From positions 7,553-71,552 of IMG/VR virus record IMGVR_UViG_3300025276_000029: 64,000 nucleotides of DNA. The stretch is one strand, 5' to 3'. Shown one piece after another: positions 1 to 51,531 of this stretch; position 1 is the first letter of the stretch; every line of letters begins with the position of its first letter. The stretch is from a virus. The notes below the pieces were generated by a model. It was given only the letters and a program-made list of their open reading frames with translations. It was not told where the DNA came from and ran no database searches. The translations under genes were made by a program, and so were the position numbers.

Positions 1-20
1 ATTGTCAACCTTTAATAATA

Positions 21-53
21 AAAAAAACCCTCTAAAATTAATTAGAAGGTTTA
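21..53 (-). terminator. Intrinsic terminator downstream of tmRNA
   Basis: Minus strand AAACCTTCTAA-ttaaat-TTTAGAGGGTTT followed by a T-run. Confidence 0.65.
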
Positions 54-96
54 ATTTGTTTTTGATGTTTTTTGTTAGTACAAAAAACGTCTTACG

Positions 97-459
97 TGGA
101 GTATTGGGGATTGAACCCCAGTCTCACTTACTTCTAATAAGTTTTCTACATGCTTAGTCAGTCTTTTCTAGACTAACAAAAATAGATAGTTTCATTATTA
201 ACCGCTGATACTAACAACTAACGGGTGTCTTTGGTAGGTCTCAAAGTCTTAAACCATGTTTGTCCCTGAAGGACGTGCATCTTCGGTTAGGCGAATGCTA
301 CCTCTCCTGAGAACTCTTCTACTTGAGAAGTTTCTAGGAAGTTTTTGTCAATGTCAAACTCGTTGTCATCTAAAAAATTGCAATAGGTTATTAAAGTGTT
401 TCCATTTAACACTGCATGCTTACTAATCACAACTTAAGTAATCAATAACAATATACCCC
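97..459 (-). ncRNA. ssrA: tmRNA (transfer-messenger RNA)
   Basis: 5' GGGGUAU pairs with 3' AUACUCC-A and includes the G3.U alanine determinant. T-arm UGGGG-UUCAAU-CCCCA. Helix-2 motifs GCAUGC / UAAGCAUGUAG. Internal tag ORF 367..287 follows UAGAU and reads (A)DNEFDIDKNFLETSQVEEFSGEVAFA*. Promoter upstream, terminator downstream. CCA end not fully encoded. Confidence 0.93.
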
Positions 460-487
460 ATAAATTAAAGAACGTATCTTATAAACA

Positions 488-518
488 CAAATATACTAAA
501 ACTTTACTAACTTGTCAA
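488..518 (-). promoter_or_regulatory. Bacteroidota sigmaA-type promoter for ssrA
   Basis: TTGACA-N17-TATATTTG, matching the -33 TTG / -7 TAnnTTTG consensus. Confidence 0.8.
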
Positions 519-528
519 GTTTTTTAAT

Positions 529-556
529 AAAAAAAATGGGGACCGTTAAGTCCCCA
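529..556 (-). terminator. Intrinsic terminator
   Basis: TGGGGAC-ttaacg-GTCCCCA followed by a T-run on the minus strand. Confidence 0.85.
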
Positions 557-604
557 CTAATAATTCGTTGCCCCGTTTATTATTAATTAGCTAATAATTC
601 CTTA

Positions 605-1021
605 TTAACTTTTTCTTGTTAAATTAGCTGAATCTAACTGATTTACAAATTCTTTTTCCGTAAGCTTAATAAGGTCGTGGAGCTTATCAGCCCTCGAATC
701 TAAATTAGACTCAAGTGTACTTAATATTCGAAATATATCTTCGACATTTTGGGTGAGATTACTATTGTTCTCTTCACTCTTTTTGTCAATTACTCGATAT
801 ATTTCATCGATACCTTGGGTGAGATTACTATTGTTTTCCTCATACCTTTTGTCACTTGACCTTTGGTTTTCATCAATTAAATTGATTAAACCTGTTATCT
901 CGTTGTTAAACATTTCGTTCCCAACCTTTTTGTTCAACTTCGTAAACATAACCACAATAGCCGTAACTAATGCAACCACACCTAGAGTTGATAAAACTGA
1001 AATTAAAATAATTGTTTCCAT
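605..1021 (-). CDS. Membrane-anchored coiled-coil protein with an internal 22-aa repeat
   Basis: N-terminal hydrophobic helix; EENNSNLTQ occurs twice (21-nt identical repeat at 749 and 815). Confidence 0.75.
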   Translation of the reverse strand: METIILISVLSTLGVVALVTAIVVMFTKLNKKVGNEMFNNEITGLINLIDENQRSSDKRYEENNSNLTQGIDEIYRVIDKKSEENNSNLTQNVEDIFRILSTLESNLDSRADKLHDLIKLTEKEFVNQLDSANLTRKS

Positions 1022-1063
1022 ATCTATTTATGTATTTAAATTGTTATATGGGGCAACCAATTA

Positions 1064-1381
1064 TTATTTTTTTAATAATTTATTATATTCTTCTGTACTT
1101 AATCTATTGTTTGAGTTAAATATAGTATAGTATTTTTTTCCGTTGTTCCTATTGTAATACATGATTAAATCATCACAATTTCCAACCTCCTCACAATAGT
1201 CAATACTATGTGTTGAATCACTAAAGAATTTTATTGAAACACCATCATTAAACCACCTTAACTTTGTATAATCAGTAAGTTTACCATATGCATATTCGAT
1301 ATTAAATGATTTAAATATATCATCTAGTATTGTAGAATAAGTTGACAGTAGGTCCTTTATGTTTTGTGAATCTTTATTCAT
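1064..1381 (-). CDS. Hypothetical protein
   Basis: 105-aa ORF packed directly behind clpP. Confidence 0.65.
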   Translation of the reverse strand: MNKDSQNIKDLLSTYSTILDDIFKSFNIEYAYGKLTDYTKLRWFNDGVSIKFFSDSTHSIDYCEEVGNCDDLIMYYNRNNGKKYYTIFNSNNRLSTEEYNKLLKK

Positions 1382-1383
1382 TA

Positions 1384-2121
1384 TTATTTCTTAGTGATAA
1401 TATCATCTATTATACCATATTCTAAAGCTTCCTTAGCGTTAAGCCAATTATCTCTTTCGCAATCTTCAAGAACTGTTTTGATATCCTTATCAGTATAATC
1501 TGCAAGCATACCAAATAAGGTTTGATTATACTTCTCAGCTTCTGCAATACTAATCTTCATGTCTTTAACGTGACCTTGAGCACCACCACTAACTTGGTGA
1601 AGCATAACCCTAGAGTTTGGTAGCGCAAATCTTTTACCTTTAGTTCCGTTACCTAATAAAATAGAACCCATTGACGCTGCCATACCAGTATTAACTGTTA
1701 CAATATCAGACTCAATATAGTTCATTACATCTACCATGCTTAGACCGCTTTTAACGCTCCCTCCTGGACTATCTACGTGCATCCTAATGTCAGACACCTC
1801 TAGGTTGTCTAAGAACATTAATTGAGCACATACAACAGTTGACATTTGGTCGTTAACTGGTCCAGCAACCCAAAGTATTCTATCCATCATTTGTCTTGAG
1901 AAGATATCCATTTGGGTTACTCTTAATTCTCTTTCTTCAAGAATATATGGTGTCATTGACCCATTAGGCGAGGTACTACCTACCACATTAACGTTATCGT
2001 ATAATGACGTTTGTAATTTATCCCAATAGTGAAATTGCATTCCACTAATCCCCATATGGTTCATTGCATAGTTCTTAAACTCACCATAGTAGTCTGTATT
2101 TGTATTTATGTAGTTTTCCAT
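1384..2121 (-). CDS. clpP: ATP-dependent Clp protease proteolytic subunit
   Basis: MTPYILEER...DIFSR..DRI and DSPGGSV motifs; catalytic Ser in AASMGS, His in MLHQ, Asp in RDNW; EALEYGIID. Confidence 0.96.
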   Translation of the reverse strand: MENYINTNTDYYGEFKNYAMNHMGISGMQFHYWDKLQTSLYDNVNVVGSTSPNGSMTPYILEERELRVTQMDIFSRQMMDRILWVAGPVNDQMSTVVCAQLMFLDNLEVSDIRMHVDSPGGSVKSGLSMVDVMNYIESDIVTVNTGMAASMGSILLGNGTKGKRFALPNSRVMLHQVSGGAQGHVKDMKISIAEAEKYNQTLFGMLADYTDKDIKTVLEDCERDNWLNAKEALEYGIIDDIITKK

Positions 2122-2133
2122 ATACTATTGTTT

Positions 2134-2358
2134 TTATCTAGCAGAAAATAATTCTGATTTGTATTTTGTTAAGGCTTCTAATTTGTCGTCTGCATCAACT
2201 AATTTTCCTAATGCTTCTTCAACATTGTCATAAAAATCTTTAGTAGAGTGGTCTCCAATACCAGCTGGGTATTCGCCCATAAGTTTTAAAGTTGTTATAG
2301 CTTCTTCTCTTTCAGATAAAGCTTTACTCTTTAGTAGTTTATATAATTGTTCTTTCAT
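2134..2358 (-). CDS. Small phage protein with GIGDH motif
   Basis: Likely start MKEQL at 2358; PAGIGDHS motif typical of a common small phage family. Confidence 0.7.
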   Translation of the reverse strand: MKEQLYKLLKSKALSEREEAITTLKLMGEYPAGIGDHSTKDFYDNVEEALGKLVDADDKLEALTKYKSELFSAR

Positions 2359-2359
2359 G

Positions 2360-2617
2360 TTATTCTTCGTTTGTATACACATAAACTGGTGTGTATTCAC
2401 CCATCCATGCCCCTTTTATATTAAAATCAAAAAACTCAATAGCTTCTTCATATGTCATTCCGTCACGATTCATGAGTATTTCATATATCTTTTCGACACT
2501 ATAAGCAGCAACGGGACCGAGATTTATTCTCTCGGCAACCCCTATCAATGCTTCATCTAACCCATCCGCAATTAATGCTTCTTCGTTGTATTCTGATACT
2601 TCTTCTGGCGTCATCAT
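2360..2617 (-). CDS. Conserved phage hypothetical protein
   Basis: ADGLDEALIG...GMTYEEAIEFFDFNIKGAWMGEYTP pattern. Confidence 0.75.
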   Translation of the reverse strand: MMTPEEVSEYNEEALIADGLDEALIGVAERINLGPVAAYSVEKIYEILMNRDGMTYEEAIEFFDFNIKGAWMGEYTPVYVYTNEE

Positions 2618-3045
2618 ACTTCAGCTGTTTCTTTTTCTACTTCATAAAGACTCTTAATACTCTCTTGTACCACTTCGTACATTTCTGGAGTAAACTTTTT
2701 AAGTATACCTGAGAAGGCTCCGCGATTAGTTATACCAACATCACCTTTCTTAACAGTTAATTTATCTTTTTCAACGTCAAATACAATGGCTGTAATTGCT
2801 TCTTCAGCAACTAGTACTTGGTGAACTTCTTCTAGTTGTTCAAATATTAATTCATTCACCACAATAAAGACTTCTTTATTAGTTTCACTCTTCATTAACT
2901 CACCACTCTTTTGGATAGTGTAGATTTCCTTTTGTTTATTGTTACCTCTGATTGCGATAGACACCACTCTGTCTAATTCTTTGTTTGCGATAACACCGTT
3001 AAAAATACTTAATGTGTCCTCATGTGGTTCGTAAAACTTTGTCAT
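2614..3045 (-). CDS. Hypothetical protein, weakly like phage metallopeptidase-like domains but without HExxH
   Basis: 143-aa ORF with its own promoter (3083-3113). Confidence 0.6.
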   Translation of the reverse strand: MTKFYEPHEDTLSIFNGVIANKELDRVVSIAIRGNNKQKEIYTIQKSGELMKSETNKEVFIVVNELIFEQLEEVHQVLVAEEAITAIVFDVEKDKLTVKKGDVGITNRGAFSGILKKFTPEMYEVVQESIKSLYEVEKETAEV

Positions 3046-3082
3046 AATTTAAAATTTAATTGTTATTTATTTGTTTCTGATA

Positions 3083-3113
3083 CAAAGATACTATTAATCA
3101 ACCTTAGTTTCAA
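3083..3113 (-). promoter_or_regulatory. SigmaA-type promoter
   Basis: TTGAAA-N17-TATCTTTG. Confidence 0.7.
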
Positions 3114-4146
3114 CCCCTTCGTGTATTTTTTTTAATTTTTTAATTAGTTCTAGCTCTTCACCTTCAATGTTTGTTGGCATTTCTATGTCTAAAATAATTA
3201 TCATTGCGCCACGAAAATTATTTCTAATATTGTTTAAGCCCTTGTTAATTATCCTTAAGTTGTCACCAATTTTACTATATTCTGGTATTGTAACTCTAAT
3301 CTTACCTCCCTCAATTGTTGGTACTTCTACTTTATCACCCATAACTAGTTGTGGGTAACTTAACTTTAACTGATATTTTAAATCATTACCACTTATTACA
3401 AAATCTTCATGAGAAGCAATGTTAATCTTAATAAGCAATGAGCCTGGTGTACCACCTTTGATAGCGTTACCCATCCCAGAATATTGAAGTGTTTCTTGTT
3501 CGGTAATACCTTTAGGTATGTTTACTGTAATAAGTTCTTCTTTATTACCTACACCCACACCTTTACAGCTATTGCATACTTTTTTAACTACATTACCTTC
3601 TCCTTGACAAGTTGGGCATGTACGTTGTGTTTGGAAGTTACCCATAGGTGTCATCTGCTGTGTTATAACAAAACCTCTACCGTCGCACGTTCCACAAACT
3701 TGTTTGTCGGTTCCACCAGCTCCGTTACAACTAACGCAAGCGGCTTTTCTTTTGTATTTAAATTGCTTTGTTGCACCATTAAATACTTCTTCAAGCGTAA
3801 TCTTCATATTAAATATTATGTCTTGTCCACGCTTTTCTCTCTGTCCACCAAATGGGTTTCCACCAAACGGGTTTCCACCCATTCCCCCACCAAAGTGATT
3901 CATCATATCTTCCATATTTACACCACCTTGCATTGGCCTTTGTTTGGTGTGTCCATATTTGTCATAATTATCTTTTTTTACTTTATCTGATAATGTTTCA
4001 TTAGCTTCTGATATTTCTTTAAATAAATTTTCGTCACCACCTTTATCTGGGTGGTGTTCCATAGCTAATTTTCTGTAAGCTTTTTTTATTTCTTTATCTG
4101 TTGCACCTTTTTTTAGTCCAAGTATTTCGTAATAATCCCTTGCCAT
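3094..4146 (-). CDS. dnaJ: Class A J-domain chaperone DnaJ
   Basis: DYYEILG..HPD J-domain, G/F-rich linker, four CxxCxGxG zinc-finger repeats, C-terminal domain. Confidence 0.96.
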
Positions 4147-4162
4147 AATATTTACATTTATT

Positions 4163-4180
4163 TAAATATACGTATATTTA
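4163..4180. promoter_or_regulatory. Perfect 18-bp palindrome between divergent genes
   Basis: TAAATATACGTATATTTA is its own reverse complement. Confidence 0.6.
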
Positions 4181-4186
4181 TTGAAT

Positions 4187-4843
4187 ATGTACAGGGTGAT
4201 TCTATTAAAAAACGGTAAGTATAGTATGACGATGCATCGTTGTAAAACAAGAGAGACTTCTTTTATTAATTACAGAAAAATTATTGACACCAACAAGGGT
4301 GTCATATTCCCTAGGAAATATGTTAACTATAAAGGTATAGTTAAAATAACCTACAAGATTGCTATAATTAAAGACACTGAAGATGATGACGAATTTAGGG
4401 TGCTTAGAGATAAAATGGGTAGGACTTATACCGAAAAAGCACTTGGAAGTTGGACTATATTAGATGATAACCCTTACGAATTCGAAGAGACATTTTGGAT
4501 GTTCGGTAGAAACCCAGTTCATGATAGAGTTACCATACATGATATAATAAAACCAATAATGGAAGGTGCTTACAAAAAGAAAATGGTTAAGCAGTTAATT
4601 GTAGTTCATAATAAATTAGTTTTATATAATGAGGACCAATTTGAAATGATTATTTGTAAATGTAAGAAAGATGCTCAAAGACTTCACCATGCGCTATCTA
4701 GTGCATGTAAGAAGAATAAGATTAAAAGTATTATATTTATGGGTACAGCACAACCTGCAACAATTTCATACATGTATGAAATCATAGCTGACCACACTGG
4801 ATGGCCGATGACCAAAATTCGCCGCACAAGCACTAGACCATAA
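4187..4843 (+). CDS. Basic hypothetical protein
   Basis: Long plus-strand ORF in a gap with no minus-strand ORF; ATG at 4187. Confidence 0.8.
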   Translation: MYRVILLKNGKYSMTMHRCKTRETSFINYRKIIDTNKGVIFPRKYVNYKGIVKITYKIAIIKDTEDDDEFRVLRDKMGRTYTEKALGSWTILDDNPYEFEETFWMFGRNPVHDRVTIHDIIKPIMEGAYKKKMVKQLIVVHNKLVLYNEDQFEMIICKCKKDAQRLHHALSSACKKNKIKSIIFMGTAQPATISYMYEIIADHTGWPMTKIRRTSTRP

Positions 4844-4967
4844 TTAGTTACGGATATAATAAAATTAATATCGGTCTTATATATCTAGTGTGTGTTATGC
4901 ATAGGTATTTATTAAAAACATTAATAAATGATAACATATTAAATATAATCTTGTCTCCTTTCATGTG

Positions 4968-5294
4968 TTAATTTCTTACTAATTCACTAATAATTACACT
5001 ATGGAAGTAACTATATATTTTCATGTCATTATCTTCATTAAATTTGTTTCTAAATTTAATTACTTTTAAAGTAACATCAATAAGTAACCCTTCTACTTGT
5101 CTATCTGTAACGTACTGCTTATTACCAAAATGTTTGTCGAATACGACTTTCACCCACTCTAATATTTTATCCATAAATTCTTGAGTGGGTACTTTCTTAG
5201 ATTCAATCCATGTTCTAAGTAATTCATCATTCTTACTTGGTAGTGTAAGATTAATTTCGTTATTCATTTTTTTTGTTTGTTTGACTGTTTCCAT
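4968..5294 (-). CDS. Possible sigma region-2-only (gp55-like) protein
   Basis: KNDELL..W.ESK and LKVIKFRNKFNED...IYSYFHSVI resemble gp55/sigma2 patterns. Confidence 0.4.
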   Translation of the reverse strand: METVKQTKKMNNEINLTLPSKNDELLRTWIESKKVPTQEFMDKILEWVKVVFDKHFGNKQYVTDRQVEGLLIDVTLKVIKFRNKFNEDNDMKIYSYFHSVIISELVRN

Positions 5295-25855: not shown

Positions 25856-26491
25856 ATGAAAATTTTAATAAAAAAATTACTTAGAGAAGGATTGTTGGAT
25901 GAAGCTGCGTTAACGACTTCGAGCCTTCCTGAAGGTACAGGGTTGTTTGCTAAAGAGCAGAATAGTAATGAGTTAGTATTATTTAACCCTAGTACGAAAC
26001 AAGCATACGCAATTATTAATTTTGTATATAACCCTAGTCAGTCAGACTTTCATTATGTCATAGCAGTTGCCGCTGAAAAGGGTTACGGACCACTTATTTA
26101 TGAGTTAGCTATGATGTATGTTGCGAGTAAACATAATAACCTGCTAACACCAACTAGAGGTGGTGAAATTAGAAGTAAAGCTTTTAACGTTTGGGAGAAA
26201 ATGTATAATAGAGAAGATGTTATTAAAAAAACATTACAACCGACTGATAAAAACTTTAACTATGATATTTTATTTCCAACTAGCGAAGTTTCGAACGATG
26301 AAAGACAAGAAGCTTTTGACGAGTTGTCGGGTAATGAAAAAAAGGATTTAATTGTATTTAACTCAGGATATACTAAAGAACCAAGTAAAGGGTATTATGA
26401 CTTATTGAGAATTGCACAAGAATACGGTGAAGATGTTTATAATTTAGCTTCTGAAGCTGGTGATAATTTATGGTCAATATCTTATGATTAA
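25856..26491 (+). CDS. GNAT-like protein with head-protein-type leader
   Basis: VAAEKGYGPLIYE resembles acetyl-CoA motif A; AFNVWEK; MKILIKKLLREGL leader; TATTTATA at 25840. Confidence 0.55.
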   Translation: MKILIKKLLREGLLDEAALTTSSLPEGTGLFAKEQNSNELVLFNPSTKQAYAIINFVYNPSQSDFHYVIAVAAEKGYGPLIYELAMMYVASKHNNLLTPTRGGEIRSKAFNVWEKMYNREDVIKKTLQPTDKNFNYDILFPTSEVSNDERQEAFDELSGNEKKDLIVFNSGYTKEPSKGYYDLLRIAQEYGEDVYNLASEAGDNLWSISYD

Positions 26492-46989: not shown

Positions 46990-49900
46990 TTAAATACTAA
47001 CACCACCATAATTTTGTAGGACTACTACGAAATCACTAGTAAGACAACCCTTACCGTTTCTGTCCCTAACTTTAATAGTATATTTAACAGGTGGGGCGAG
47101 TTGAGGTATGCCATTAACATCTATTATTACAGGATTAGCTGGTGGAAGGTTGTATACATCGTTTGAACCAGAAAGTTGTTTAACGACGTCTGGTGTTGTG
47201 CTTGACCCTTTATACCATTCTATCACGTATTTATAAATATCAATCCCGCTTGTAACATTAAGGTTAAATACACCGCCGTCAATAGTAGCTGTAATTGTAC
47301 CTAAAGTTGTATCGCTTTTTAGTACTGCGGTAAGAGGTATGTCTGGTGAAAATACATCAACAAATTCGCTTTTGGTGCATCCACTTACGTCTGTAACTGT
47401 AACCTCATATGCGTTAACACCATTCCCTTCATCTAGCCCAAGTCCTGAATTATCGAATGTTACATCGGTACCAGTTTTTGATTCTGTAGAAATAGTTGTT
47501 ATGTATGGTCCTCCTGACCCACCTACAATATTATTAACTGATATAGAAGCTATTGAACCGTTGCAGTTACCATCCACAATAGTTATAGGGTCGTAAGTTA
47601 TTGGTTGTGGTTCGTTTACGGCAACACTAAAATTTGTTGTCGTATTAGCTCCGTCATCTGTAACATCAACAGAATACGTTCCAGCATATAGGTCATCTAT
47701 TAGACTTGTTGTTTTCCCATTACTCCATAAAAATGAATACGGACCTACACCTCCACTAACGTAACTTATAATACTTCCACTTTTTTCACCGTTACAGGCT
47801 ACGTCCTCAGGAGTTAATACTACGTTTAATGCCTGAGGTTCAATTATTTCTATTAATTCGTCACAGCTAGTCTGAGGTGTGCTAGAGTCGGTTACAATTA
47901 CTTTGTAATATCCTTTACCTAGATTAGATATAAGTCTACTTGTGGAGTTACCAGTGGTTGGTGGCCCTACAGGGGATAATAAAGTACCTGGTGGTGATGG
48001 GTCGTATTCATATGTTGTGACAGTGTATGGTGGTGTTCCGTTACTTATGTCGATTGTTATTTTACCGTCAGTATAACCGTTAGCGGTTATATCAGTTTTT
48101 TGTGTGTTACAGTAAGTTGATGGTGCACCTGGAACTATAAATGTGCTGTCGGTTACATTTCCTGCTGAATCGGTAACTGTAACGGTGTATGTTCCAGCAT
48201 ATAATCCAGTTATTGAGTTTGTATTACCACTTTGTGGTGTGTAGTTGGGAGTTAATGGGTAACTTAAACCATTTATGGTTGGCCCATTCCACGAAAATGT
48301 GTATGGTCCGACACCCCCAGATACTTGTATCGTTATCTCACCTGAGCCATTACTTAGTGAGTCACTTGTGATATCAGTTGCGATAACGAAAAAATCTATA
48401 CCTGGTTCTGGTGTACATTTTGCAAAATATTTACTTTTCATTTTACTTAGTGCGGTTTTACCTTTATTTAAGCCAAAGTAGAAATAGTATGAACTTTCAT
48501 AAAACCATATTTGACCATCAGTCTTTTGAATTGAACCAATACCAATTAATAGAGGGTTAGGTTGAAAAAAAACTTGACTACCTACTGAGTAGCGTTTATT
48601 TACATTTCTAAATTCTTTGTAGTGTACATCCTCGTAATCATAGTAATCTTTTTCATCAATTCTAACTGATGGTATTTCTGTTAAGTTTGGTGAATTTAAA
48701 TACGTAAACATACCTCTTACAAAATCTGATTCAACATCCTCGTTACCAATACGATTATTAGGTACACTGCCAGTGTCATCTCTTCTTTCGTCTAAGCCCA
48801 TACCTAATTCACTTAACCTTTTTATGTTGTTACAATTTTTACTGTTGGTTTGAAGACCTCCACAGGTTATGTTTCCGATTAACCCTGATTTAAGTATTCC
48901 GAACGTTCCGATAGGGATTATCACTACATTAGGAGTTGCTGGGTTTACACCAACGTTATATATTCCATTGTTAATCTGTGGGATAGGAATATAAGAGTAG
49001 TAGGTTGAGAGTGGTGTGTCAAACCCTGTTATTTGTATAGGTCCGTTACCCCCAGAAGCTGTAGGTTCGTATTGAGCTACAAGTGGTGGAATATTAAAGG
49101 TTGTGTCTGTTAAATATTTATAAAAAACTGGTTCACCTTCCCAGTCACAATCGAATACTGAACCTAGGTTAACGATATCGGTGGCATATAACTTAATGTC
49201 ACCGTCTCTTGTTATCGGTGAATAGTATAATTCACCATCATTTTTCTTAATGTATCCACTTCTTATTTTTATAGCATCGTAAGCATTAACACCGCCATTA
49301 GGGTTTCCATTAGCGTCTGCAGCCGTAAAAGAAGTGCTAAATTGAGGTTGTGAACCTGTACATACGTCAATTATATAGTTACGTTGACATCTATTATCAG
49401 GTTTTCCGTTATCATTATTATCTACACCTGTGTTGGCAATCTGTCTACAATCTACCTCGCAAAATCTTTCCCTACCAGCTCCATTCCTTCTGATTTTATA
49501 TTTTAATAAAAAACTATATAGTGAACCATTAATCCAATCATTATAAAAATCGAATTTAAAGATATCGAAAGCGTCTGCTAATGCTAGTGTTTGACAGTGT
49601 GACCATCCAGCGTCACAGCCTTCTATTGATAGAAGTTTTAAAGCTGTACATTCATGTTCATCCGCTCCGTCGTTAACATAGTGGAAATCTTCTTTAGTTT
49701 CTAGTTCAGTTTCTGGGTCTACACTTGCGTAAGTTGCATCCCATGCCTTACGAAACACACTTGATTTCGTTTTACCACGCCTACCACCTGGAGCGTATTT
49801 TTTTCCACTATCATCGGCACTACAACCTAAGGTTATGTATGGTACGTATGGAATAATATCTTTACAATCACAGCTGTTGTCGCTAGCCTTAAAGGTACCT

Positions 49901-51531
49901 ATACATCCTCCTGACCTACAGGACGACTTATAATAAGCTAATTTAATCCCACATACAAGCGAACCTATTTGGTATAGTGCAATACATATACCTCTCATTA
50001 TGAGGTTAAGTAGCATCATAATAAGGTTAATTATCGCAATAATGATAAAATTTATTACACCAACTATTCTTGCTATAATCCTAATTATTATACAAATTAT
50101 TGTAAAAAGTGGGTTAATTTTGTTGTCCAATTTATTAAATGGAAATGGGTTTCTATTCTTAGAATCATCAACATTTTTAAGCCCTATGAAGTTTCTGACT
50201 TCATCATTAAGTGTAGGTTGTGCTCTAGTTATGTGATTTTTAACTGTATATATTTTGTTCCATGATAATTCGGTAAAATGTTCATCCTTTGTTGTACTGT
50301 CAAAACTAAAATCAACACCCTTTAAAAATGGACTATAACTAGTGGTGCCAGGAGTACCTATTTCTTTAGCGCCCTTCCATGTATCTGGATTGTGTGGTAC
50401 CAGAAATTTAGCTCTTGTTCTGTTTCTCCCTTCATCACCCTCTATATTCATTCCGATTCTAAATCTTACTTTAGCTTTTGTTGGGATACCTTTTGATGAA
50501 TCTTCTGATGGGATAAAATTTCCATATTCATCAGTTATCATGTAGTTTCTATTCATGGGTATTTGATACGCCCACGCACCATCTTCATCAATTAATTCAC
50601 CACCCTCAACATCATACCTTTCGGTTTTATCGTCGTTAGTTTTTCTTATCATTTCGATTCTACCTTCACCAGTTACAAGTTCGTCCATTTTACCTAAATT
50701 TTTTCTAGGTGCACATGATTTGCTGACCGCATGTTTATCGTTATCGCTGATGATTGAACCCATGAATATAGCCTGAGGTACTATATTTGTAGCTAAATTA
50801 ATGTCACTTCTAGCTATACCGATTCTACATTCTTCGGTGTCTCCCCAGAATGGTGGTACTGTAACACTTGTTGGTGAGGTTGTTTTTAATTGAGTAAGCG
50901 TTAAAGTTTCACTTATACCTTTAAATTTTGTTGTTGAGGTAAATTTACCAATAGGGTTACCTTCTCGGATTGAATCGTATGGTCTCTGAGAAAGTACGCC
51001 TATATCTGAAATGTCAGCGTCTACATGCATAAAGTGTGTACCTACTGGGACTCCGAAAATCATAAAATCACCAGATTCGTTAGTTGTAACGGTGAATTTA
51101 TAGTAATCACAATATATATCACCCATTTCTGGATTGTCTTGTATTTCCCTTTTACTTGGAAATGTGCCTATTGGTGAGAAACATTCATCTTTTCCCCTGT
51201 TGTTTCTAGGTAGGAGGTTGTATGGGATTCCTTTATCATTAGTATCAGTTATTCTTTCGTACGGATATAGTCCAAAGATTTCTGAATCTTCTGCATCTAC
51301 TTCATCAATTGGTATAAAAATTGACACTTTTGCATTAGGAACACCTACTCCGTTATTAACTATAACTCTTCCGACGACTACACCGTAGTCAGAGCAGAAT
51401 CGTCTGTACGCTTCAGCTTGTGAAATTTTAAGTGAAAGAATTTCTATAAAATCAAATTTTTGATTTATTTTTAAATTTATATTCTTACTCCTTGAGCCTG
51501 GTGTTGTTTTTATCCTGATATTATCTGACAT
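46990..51531 (-). CDS. Large structural protein with transthyretin-like N-terminus, hydrophobic core segment and SprB-like repeats
   Basis: GRVI..NGVGVPNAKVSIF; long hydrophobic stretch; repeats such as CNGEKSGSI..VSGGVGPYSFLWSNG...L.AGTYSV.VTD. Confidence 0.75.
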   Translation of the reverse strand: MSDNIRIKTTPGSRSKNINLKINQKFDFIEILSLKISQAEAYRRFCSDYGVVVGRVIVNNGVGVPNAKVSIFIPIDEVDAEDSEIFGLYPYERITDTNDKGIPYNLLPRNNRGKDECFSPIGTFPSKREIQDNPEMGDIYCDYYKFTVTTNESGDFMIFGVPVGTHFMHVDADISDIGVLSQRPYDSIREGNPIGKFTSTTKFKGISETLTLTQLKTTSPTSVTVPPFWGDTEECRIGIARSDINLATNIVPQAIFMGSIISDNDKHAVSKSCAPRKNLGKMDELVTGEGRIEMIRKTNDDKTERYDVEGGELIDEDGAWAYQIPMNRNYMITDEYGNFIPSEDSSKGIPTKAKVRFRIGMNIEGDEGRNRTRAKFLVPHNPDTWKGAKEIGTPGTTSYSPFLKGVDFSFDSTTKDEHFTELSWNKIYTVKNHITRAQPTLNDEVRNFIGLKNVDDSKNRNPFPFNKLDNKINPLFTIICIIIRIIARIVGVINFIIIAIINLIMMLLNLIMRGICIALYQIGSLVCGIKLAYYKSSCRSGGCIGTFKASDNSCDCKDIIPYVPYITLGCSADDSGKKYAPGGRRGKTKSSVFRKAWDATYASVDPETELETKEDFHYVNDGADEHECTALKLLSIEGCDAGWSHCQTLALADAFDIFKFDFYNDWINGSLYSFLLKYKIRRNGAGRERFCEVDCRQIANTGVDNNDNGKPDNRCQRNYIIDVCTGSQPQFSTSFTAADANGNPNGGVNAYDAIKIRSGYIKKNDGELYYSPITRDGDIKLYATDIVNLGSVFDCDWEGEPVFYKYLTDTTFNIPPLVAQYEPTASGGNGPIQITGFDTPLSTYYSYIPIPQINNGIYNVGVNPATPNVVIIPIGTFGILKSGLIGNITCGGLQTNSKNCNNIKRLSELGMGLDERRDDTGSVPNNRIGNEDVESDFVRGMFTYLNSPNLTEIPSVRIDEKDYYDYEDVHYKEFRNVNKRYSVGSQVFFQPNPLLIGIGSIQKTDGQIWFYESSYYFYFGLNKGKTALSKMKSKYFAKCTPEPGIDFFVIATDITSDSLSNGSGEITIQVSGGVGPYTFSWNGPTINGLSYPLTPNYTPQSGNTNSITGLYAGTYTVTVTDSAGNVTDSTFIVPGAPSTYCNTQKTDITANGYTDGKITIDISNGTPPYTVTTYEYDPSPPGTLLSPVGPPTTGNSTSRLISNLGKGYYKVIVTDSSTPQTSCDELIEIIEPQALNVVLTPEDVACNGEKSGSIISYVSGGVGPYSFLWSNGKTTSLIDDLYAGTYSVDVTDDGANTTTNFSVAVNEPQPITYDPITIVDGNCNGSIASISVNNIVGGSGGPYITTISTESKTGTDVTFDNSGLGLDEGNGVNAYEVTVTDVSGCTKSEFVDVFSPDIPLTAVLKSDTTLGTITATIDGGVFNLNVTSGIDIYKYVIEWYKGSSTTPDVVKQLSGSNDVYNLPPANPVIIDVNGIPQLAPPVKYTIKVRDRNGKGCLTSDFVVVLQNYGGVSI

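Follow-up and report, generated by a model that had tools for sequence, protein, structure and literature searches.

Transfer-messenger RNA (tmRNA, ssrA) genes are found in cluster C mycobacteriophages and in Bacillus phage G (PMC4131195), the latter encoding one tmRNA together with ClpP and ClpX (PMC12484599), and some huge phages carry a tmRNA along with SmpB (PMC7162821). A survey that recovered tmRNAs from 402 of 18,146 phage genomes advanced the idea that they serve to tag host proteins for recycling (PMC9004378). In jumbo phages, DnaJ proteins encoded without a phage Hsp70 have been predicted to recruit host DnaK, and ClpP, which occurs sporadically, is viewed as a protein that phages turn on the host or use together with it (Iyer et al. 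2021, PMC7824862). These statements, like the literature comparisons below, follow the portions of the sources that were available. Here we describe a locus in which a tmRNA gene, clpP and dnaJ stand close together and, as the first-pass annotation had noted, are co-oriented; all are on the minus strand. It lies in a window of 64,000 nucleotides, bases 7553 to 71552 of the 71,552-base virus record IMGVR_UViG_3300025276_000029 (G000), for which CheckV estimates a completeness of 20%.

Our preferred reading, which we hold with about as much belief as doubt, is that this locus is a phage translation-quality-control and proteostasis block and that a phage ClpC-ClpP protease has tagged products among its classes of substrate. 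The parts are known singly; as far as the available portions of the literature go, the new elements are the adjacency of ssrA to a clp gene and a long tag shared across an entire lineage. No description of ssrA-clp adjacency, or of lineage-wide long tags unlike those of the host, was found for phages in those portions, and the phage-tmRNA tables of PMC7162821 and PMC9004378 may already include members of this lineage. The lineage gives a concrete handle on the purpose of phage tmRNAs in the form of a conserved, host-unlike tag, an adjacent phage ClpP, and ClpC and SmpB encoded elsewhere in the genomes of relatives. Together with a second lineage, in which the tmRNA is linked to clpC, it makes the question of a virus-owned, orthogonal tag-and-degrade system directly testable.

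Compared with bacterial trans-translation and Clp proteolysis (in Escherichia coli, tmRNA-SmpB, ClpXP/ClpAP and SspB), the phage components share an alanine-identity acceptor stem, a resume codon following UAG-NN, a tag that ends in a non-polar residue plus Ala, an intact ClpP triad and, in relatives, a Clp unfoldase and SmpB. They differ in being all virus-encoded, in a tag of 26 residues rather than 9 to 11 that is unrelated to the host-type GENNYALAA, in an unfoldase of ClpC rather than ClpX type, in the lack of any SspB or ClpS found, and in the position of ssrA directly beside clpP. Mollicutes, which lack ClpXP, have tmRNA tags of about 27 residues that end in AFA and are read by Lon. The phage tag resembles these in its length and its ...AFA C-terminus; the difference is that a Clp protease is encoded alongside the phage tmRNA. 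Described phage tmRNAs are likewise borne on phage genomes that sometimes include SmpB or Clp genes (PMC4131195, PMC12484599, PMC9004378, PMC7162821). In phage G, however, the tmRNA and clpPX are far apart by gene numbers, unlike the ssrA-clpP adjacency found here (PMC12484599), and the pelagiphage-like Melnitz has, according to the available text, a two-piece tmRNA, unlike this phage. Relative to the DnaJ and ClpP proteins described from jumbo phages (PMC7824862), those of this locus are set apart by belonging to one packed unit, adjoined by the tmRNA, with ClpC present in the complete relatives.

The tmRNA gene and its encoded tag

The tmRNA gene (94 to 459, minus strand) matches the full Rfam model RF00023 (model positions 1 to 374) with 55 bits (gathering score, 47; E = 7.5e-19), the sole family match in the window, and the earlier claim of a complete tmRNA gene thus passed its Rfam check. 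The mature RNA probably extends from 97 to 459, with CCA, which is not encoded, being added posttranscriptionally. Its 5' end (GGGGUAU) and 3' end (AUACUCCA) form a 7-bp acceptor stem with G3:U70, and the tRNA-like domain has a T-arm and a discriminator A. Fifteen tmRNAs of the lineage, which is defined by ClpP similarity below, align well across the tRNA-like domain and the tag region. G3:U is kept in all 15, and their RNAalifold consensus reveals compensatory changes in 26 of 45 predicted pairs, including four of the six acceptor pairs, four of the five in the T-arm and pairs of the long helix. The pseudoknot region (PK1 to PK4) has low Rfam posterior probabilities and aligns poorly, and RNAalifold is unable to model pseudoknots. 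Because flavobacterial tmRNAs score 140 to 152 bits with the same model, the phage tmRNA is strongly diverged; judged by these sequence comparisons, it is nonetheless real and under selection.

The first-pass annotation had also proposed confirmation by ARAGORN, and this check failed: the program returned no gene in the whole window. Of the 15 lineage tmRNAs on which it was run, the window's own among them, it recognizes 12. Twelve of 31 phage tmRNA loci were missed by it. Two further tmRNAs, those of L263 (G026) and L243 (G030), score 38.4 bits, under the Rfam gathering score; a genome-wide Rfam search missed both, and a direct scan found them. Phage tmRNAs are undercounted by surveys resting on ARAGORN or the Rfam cut-off alone, and ARAGORN is the stated survey method in the available portions of the phage-tmRNA literature.

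The tmRNA gene lies directly behind the dnaJ-to-clpP unit and appears to be its own transcription unit, since it is bracketed on the minus strand by a terminator-like hairpin at 535 to 558 (a 10-bp stem followed by a T run) that would close the upstream protein-coding unit, by a promoter-like site at 490 to 518, and by a second terminator-like hairpin 3' of the gene at 25 to 52 (an 11-bp stem followed by a T run). The promoter-like site, TTGACA-17-TATATT, has 11 of 12 matching positions, is the best such match within positions 1 to 5000 of the window and overlaps a TAnnTTTG motif. A leader of the form GTTCTTTAA-N-TAT (460 to 475) abuts the mature 5' end and is conserved in both phage lineages; a sequence resembling it precedes one flavobacterial tmRNA (L199).

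Four metatranscriptome runs from three studies yielded contigs over parts of positions 122 to 449, all within the tmRNA gene. In one run (X15), two RNA-library contigs match the tmRNA without any difference, and this run and another (X16) contain exact contigs over the open reading frames (ORFs) for the 85-, 143- and 138-aa proteins described below. Other, short RNA-library matches, at 1613 to 1647 and 4064 to 4095, were rejected as coming from the ClpP and DnaJ genes of other organisms because they continue into unlike sequence.

The tag frame (287 to 367, minus strand) starts at a GAC resume codon (367 to 365), directly preceded by UAG-AU, and comprises 26 codons closed by a UAA stop (289 to 287). 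The encoded tag is (A)DNEFDIDKNFLETSQVEEFSGEVAFA, in a register that agrees with the Rfam alignment and with the ARAGORN tags of relatives. Frame, resume context and stop are conserved in all 16 lineage tmRNAs, whose tags have 25 to 26 residues and the form [DGA]-N/D-x-F-x-[IV]-x-x-N-[FI]-[LF]…G-E-x-x-x-A. Among 13 of these tmRNAs, 733 of 1,663 pairwise differences in the tag frame fall at third codon positions, compared with 466 and 464 at positions 1 and 2, and conserved tag residues are accompanied by synonymous codon changes. The phage tags end in a non-polar residue followed by Ala, as known degradation tags do. Among five genomes of Flavobacteriia picked from the ClpP matches, four encode GENNYALAA and one encodes GNNNYALAA. 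In the second phage lineage, the tags have 21 to 24 residues (e.g., GNTFAKMATLGLTREASVVAA), and since both lineages possess them, long tags with a conserved interior are a trait of these phage tmRNAs. One complete relative of 380 kb (G007; loci L009 and L083) carries a second ClpP as well as a second tmRNA, its two tmRNAs scoring 59.7 and 106.7 bits; the second tmRNA probably encodes the tag GNILENATVGHFVAEDAAVVA.

Linkage of ssrA to clpP, dnaJ and clpC

The clpP gene (1384 to 2121, minus strand) encodes a protein of the cellular, Bacteroidota-like type, with an N-terminal extension that is common to Bacteroidota ClpPs. The protein reaches 198.2 bits with Pfam CLP_protease (cut-off, 20.2), matches NCBIfam models of cellular ClpP over its whole length at 229, 219 and 189 bits, and aligns with solved ClpPs over about 190 residues (top match, E = 2e-49 or better), including the GMAASMG, MLHQ and ERDNW catalytic motifs. 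The Ser-His-Asp triad that had been described as intact is so, with S150, H175 and D224 invariant in 11 phage ClpPs. By sequence, the phage ClpP is a diverged member of the cellular type. The product of dnaJ (3094 to 4146, minus strand) is, as had been stated, a full class A DnaJ co-chaperone: its J domain, CXXCXGXG zinc-finger domain and C-terminal domain each exceed the Pfam cut-off, and its translation contains HPD, a Gly/Phe-rich stretch and four CxxCxGxG motifs. From dnaJ to the gene for the 138-aa protein, neighboring genes either overlap or leave gaps no longer than 48 nt.

Scanning viral contigs with ClpP identified 91 relatives, of which 80 were kept; in the 16 closest of these, ClpP is 60 to 90% identical to that of the window. 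All 16 have an Rfam-detected tmRNA downstream of clpP on the same strand, at a distance of 80 to 1,975 nt in 15 and of about 6 kb in one (G002). In tblastn searches of these relatives, the 143-aa protein encoded next to ClpP was found in all 16, DnaJ in 14, an FKBP-type prolyl isomerase in 10 and ribosomal protein bS21 in 2. A scan for the coding motif of the tag, which is independent of ClpP, yielded 20 loci, 12 of them on contigs that the ClpP scan did not reach, and clpP lay upstream in 17 of the 18 loci with enough upstream sequence; some of these loci look like one phage recovered from different samples (L209/L210 and L211/L220). The proposed synteny of ssrA and clpP in related phages is thus borne out. 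The extension of the block to dnaJ holds in 14 of 15 informative close relatives (L016 is without it, and L007 is too short to tell) and fails at the corresponding slot in some relatives, as discussed below. None of the other 64 ClpP loci has DnaJ within 10 kb, and where a tmRNA is present it lies roughly 10 to 23 kb from clpP. In two tallies, tmRNAs over the Rfam cut-off were present in 30 of 50 and in 13 of 29 records.

We looked for partner proteins in relatives, four of which are complete records (G007, G015, G016 and G026). All four encode ClpP and an AAA_2 protein of the ClpC type, and all four have a tmRNA, that of G026 falling below the Rfam cut-off at 38.4 bits. The best matches of these ATPases among solved structures are to ClpC, in one continuous stretch, at 784 and 734 bits, ClpB matching over a shorter part. 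Besides two AAA+ modules and a short middle domain, they have a GVGF or GIGF loop at the position of ClpP-docking loops; they pass no NCBIfam model, the top one being ClpB, below its cut-off. SmpB was found in 3 of 50 related records, most of the 50 being fragments: the closest relative (G001), G015 and G016, the last two being complete genomes. In G001 and G007, the ClpC and SmpB partners found lie on the side beyond the reach of this contig. The suggested search of the genome for smpB and for clpX or clpC was answered in part by relatives, which supply SmpB and ClpC; no ClpX was seen, as the AAA_2 model matched only ClpC-like ORFs. Hsp70 was not found in five records, three complete genomes among them.

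In the second lineage, the tmRNA is downstream of clpC on the same strand, with a gap of about 3 kb in the 10 records that have both an AAA_2 match and an above-cut-off tmRNA. A motif scan from the tmRNA side found clpC upstream, at a gap of 2.5 to 5.7 kb, in each of the 38 loci whose upstream sequence extends for 4 kb or more. Three genes lie between clpC and the tmRNA, two of them on the opposite strand, and clpP is roughly 10 to 23 kb from the tmRNA. Because these loci are closely related, with ClpC 75 to 100% identical, this linkage counts as about one event. The ClpC of this lineage (654 to 681 aa; e.g., L224:2826-4838) is without an N-terminal domain, and its gene is preceded by a divergently oriented gene for a 125-aa protein with two UVR-like motifs (L224:2275-2652).

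Competing explanations of the locus

If the locus is a quality-control and proteostasis block, the host alanyl-tRNA synthetase (AlaRS) would charge the phage tmRNA with alanine, and the tmRNA with SmpB, phage-encoded in the closest relative and otherwise the host's, would enter and free stalled ribosomes, whose products would receive the phage-specific 26-residue tag with its non-polar X-Ala end. The tightly packed upstream unit would contribute ClpP and DnaJ along with three to four small proteins. As the searches revealed no phage Hsp70, DnaJ presumably works by recruiting the DnaK of the host, and ClpP presumably pairs with a ClpC-type unfoldase, which the complete relatives encode elsewhere in their genomes; degradation of tagged proteins by the phage ClpC-ClpP would be the most likely link. 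Of the tag-and-degrade pathway that the first-pass annotation had put forward, the genes, their linkage and the ClpC and SmpB of relatives were recovered, and the pathway itself is plausible, with partial support from comparison among phages. The host RNA-cleaving defenses that the annotation had named as an example of what stalls the ribosomes are a hypothetical trigger. In our judgement, the best comparative argument for a functional tie between ssrA and Clp is that two lineages with shuffled gene orders keep ssrA beside different Clp components, clpP in one and clpC in the other.

Several findings weigh against this reading. Nothing found here connects the tag with the phage protease. ClpP and DnaJ both fall under the NCBIfam equivalog cut-offs (for ClpP, NF011091 at 229.3 versus 361 and TIGR00493 at 188.9 versus 308.6; for DnaJ, TIGR02349 at 328.3 versus 377.2). 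Searches of this contig, which represents about 20% of the genome, turned up neither ClpC nor SmpB, and the complete genome G007 has no SmpB. Pfam searches for SspB and ClpS were negative in all of five records, three complete genomes included (MecA was not searched for). The RNA-library contigs fit expression of the tmRNA and are no proof of it, as DNA can occur in RNA libraries. Further points of the same kind are also the ones that best suit a possible, if somewhat unlikely, alternative, namely that independent host-like auxiliary genes are together by shared ancestry and that the tmRNA merely adds ribosome rescue. Tagged products would then go to host ClpXP, Lon or FtsH, DnaJ would aid the folding of virion proteins, and the substrates of phage ClpC-ClpP would be host proteins, defense proteins or phage regulators. 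Gene order is shared among the 16 close relatives across the entire region, down to unrelated flanking genes, so that counts of relatives are not counts of independent events; part of the linkage is plain collinearity, and much of it may be inherited gene order, with each lineage arrangement amounting to about one evolutionary event. DnaJ is missing at its slot in L016, L206, L209 and L215, and on the 62-kb record L212 the tmRNA is accompanied by DnaJ and the 143-aa protein, whereas ClpP is absent between them and from the rest of the fragment. In G002, the same slot (L004/L097), between the genes for the 138-aa protein and the FKBP, holds a tmRNA of 81 bits that is not alignable with the others and encodes the short, host-like tag GNAEYAMAA. 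There, clpP is kept (78% identity), about 5 kb of extra genes separating it from the 138-aa gene. This tmRNA may be an in-place replacement, and since a short-tag tmRNA occupies the slot in a genome that keeps clpP, the long tag is not required in G002. The separate transcription unit of the tmRNA and the distance of at least 50 kb between ClpC and clpP in the ClpP-linked lineage also suit shared ancestry, and surveys, in their available portions, regard tmRNA, ClpP and DnaJ as genes that phages have acquired sporadically and separately (PMC7162821, PMC7824862, PMC9004378). Shared ancestry accounts less well for the two differently arranged lineages that keep the tmRNA near a Clp component, for the occurrence of tmRNA, ClpP and ClpC together in four of four complete genomes (the tmRNA of G026 at 38 bits), and for the conservation of long tags well beyond their C-terminal residues, which suggests a dedicated reader of the tag.

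Such a reader is central to a private degron, which we consider unlikely: a phage-only tag of 21 to 26 residues would be recognized by phage ClpC-ClpP, or by a phage adaptor, and not by host ClpXP. The recognized element would be the conserved acidic N-terminal part of the tag (…FDIDENFL…), and the zincin-like 143-aa protein beside clpP could be the reader. If this were true, the phage would strip stalled ribosomes, mostly on decaying host mRNAs, and recycle the products on its own terms. It is very improbable that the ClpP-like gene encodes a virion (prohead) maturation protease unconnected to the tmRNA. ClpP-fold prohead proteases are common in tailed phages, and the best PHROG families of the protein are labeled "head maturation protease" (phrog_94, 136 bits), a further point against our preferred reading; however, the ClpP-related head maturation protease model NF045542 gives 72.8 bits against a cut-off of 120, far below the cellular ClpP models, the similarity to solved cellular ClpPs and the Bacteroidota-type extension have been described above, the gene has a chaperone gene on one side and the tmRNA on the other and is not among head genes, and all four complete relatives encode a separate T4 gp21-type (S77) prohead protease in addition to a ClpC partner. 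Equally improbable is that the tmRNA-like sequence does not work, whether as the remnant of an integration site or as a decoy, titrating SmpB and blocking trans-translation in the host. Its low Rfam score relative to flavobacterial tmRNAs, the negative ARAGORN result and the poorly aligned pseudoknot region would suit a nonfunctional RNA, and the sequence of mycobacteriophage DS6A that consists of a tRNA-like domain (TLD) only offers, in the available part of its description, a precedent for a decoy (PMC4131195). Against this stand a match to the full length of the model rather than to a 3' fragment, the compensatory changes in the acceptor stem, T-arm and long helix, the tag frame, resume context and stop kept in 16 of 16 tmRNAs, and the SmpB genes of several relatives; a relic is further disfavored by the single Rfam match, with no partial duplicate seen in the window (an integrase was not searched for).

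Small proteins, host and other features

The small ORFs between dnaJ and the tmRNA gene, all on the minus strand, had been described as conserved. The four ORFs designated 1064, 2134, 2360 and 2614 do exist; conservation varies from one to the next, and no Pfam match above cut-off was found for the small ORFs of the window. The 143-aa protein (2614 to 3045) is encoded beside clpP in 16 of 16 relatives. Next to it, an 85-aa protein (2360 to 2617) belongs to phrog_13182 (85.7 bits) and occurs in 12 of 16 close relatives and, 5 to 9 kb from clpP, in many more distant phages; its AlphaFold model is of low confidence (pLDDT 63). An 88-aa protein (2134 to 2400) matches phrog_1811 (E = 1.8e-6) from residue 15 onward, its true start is probably the ATG at 2358, and it is present in 2 of 16 close relatives. 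The 105-aa ORF at 1064 to 1381 is specific to this phage, with no tblastn match in 80 related loci and no family. A 138-aa protein (605 to 1021), which has a hydrophobic N-terminus and a repeat-rich tail and matches no family above cut-off, is represented by a homologue in 10 of 16 close relatives, located in the interval from clpP to the tmRNA.

The model of the 143-aa protein (pLDDT 80) has a zincin-like fold, its best matches in the PDB being the minigluzincins jannalysin and selecase (E = 0.024; TM scores, 0.48 and 0.62), and PF18894 (PhageMetallopep) is present in 14% and 68% of the members of its ESM Atlas neighbors. No Pfam match was found at E 0.01, and there is no HEXXH zinc site: by our placement, AEEAI occupies the helix where HEXXH would be expected, and no histidine is conserved. 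Because AEEAI replaces HEXXH, the protein, as modeled, probably has a zincin fold without catalysis and is not a peptidase. A predicted complex with ClpP scored 0.00, which counts neither for nor against binding. The suggestion that one of the small proteins is an adaptor found no support so far, there being no SspB or ClpS homologue in the five records and the 143-aa protein being unlike known adaptors; an adaptor role for the latter is speculation. A 252-aa HExxH protein encoded beside clpC in the second lineage was considered as a relative of the 143-aa protein and was ruled out (hhalign probability, 0.1), as was its relationship to a 456-aa ORF of this contig.

Downstream of the tmRNA on the same strand, outside the window, the record encodes the SlyD/SlpA-like FKBP prolyl isomerase (G000:C1:7053-7502; 67.9 bits) and bS21 (G000:C1:5449-5640; 43.3 bits). 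Genes in the window besides the cluster include those for a ribonucleotide reductase, a DnaB-like helicase, an exonuclease, a UvsX-like recombinase, a single-stranded DNA-binding protein (SSB) and a baseplate wedge protein. The GC content is 32.5%. Because relatives with end repeats or 100% completeness measure 326 to 380 kb, we regard the contig as a fragment of a jumbo phage, probably about 20% of a genome of about 350 kb from a phage of marine Bacteroidota. In a blastn search of a phage collection, positions 1 to 4900 of the window had no close relative, only short ClpP and DnaJ matches of about 70% identity. DNA runs sharing at least 22% of the sampled words of positions 1 to 4200 are all labeled marine metagenome (X1 to X13, eight studies), and the source sample is possibly X1.

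The host is likely a member of the Bacteroidota and probably a marine flavobacterium, because the nearest cellular ClpPs are from Bacteroidota and because TAnnTTTG precedes the tmRNAs. Those ClpPs are 42 to 47% identical to the phage protein, and among candidates preselected with two peptide patterns, all 80 kept record titles name taxa that we take to be members of the Bacteroidota. TAnnTTTG, the Bacteroidota-type -7 motif, occurs upstream of 14 of 15 lineage tmRNAs, 19 to 50 nt away, and of all 12 tmRNAs of other phages in the set.

Two observations concern genes away from the cluster. A peptide of the form M-K-x-x-I-K-K-L-L-[RNK]-E-(G)-L is common to five otherwise unrelated ORFs, four of them on the minus strand outside the window, at G000:C1:178, 1033, 2981 and 3543, and one on the plus strand at 25856 to 26491 of the window. 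It is N-terminal in four ORFs and internal, at about residue 283, in the 456-aa ORF; reversed translations gave no matches, and an ORF of a distant phage (L224:4881) begins in a comparable way. The peptide may be a shared leader or targeting peptide; in phage T4, capsid-targeting leaders are cleaved after L/I-x-E. Finally, a 1513-aa protein (46990 to 51531, minus strand), whose gene adjoins that for the baseplate wedge protein, contains SprB repeats (58.6 bits), which are found in the gliding adhesins of Bacteroidota, and this protein may be a host-recognition fiber.

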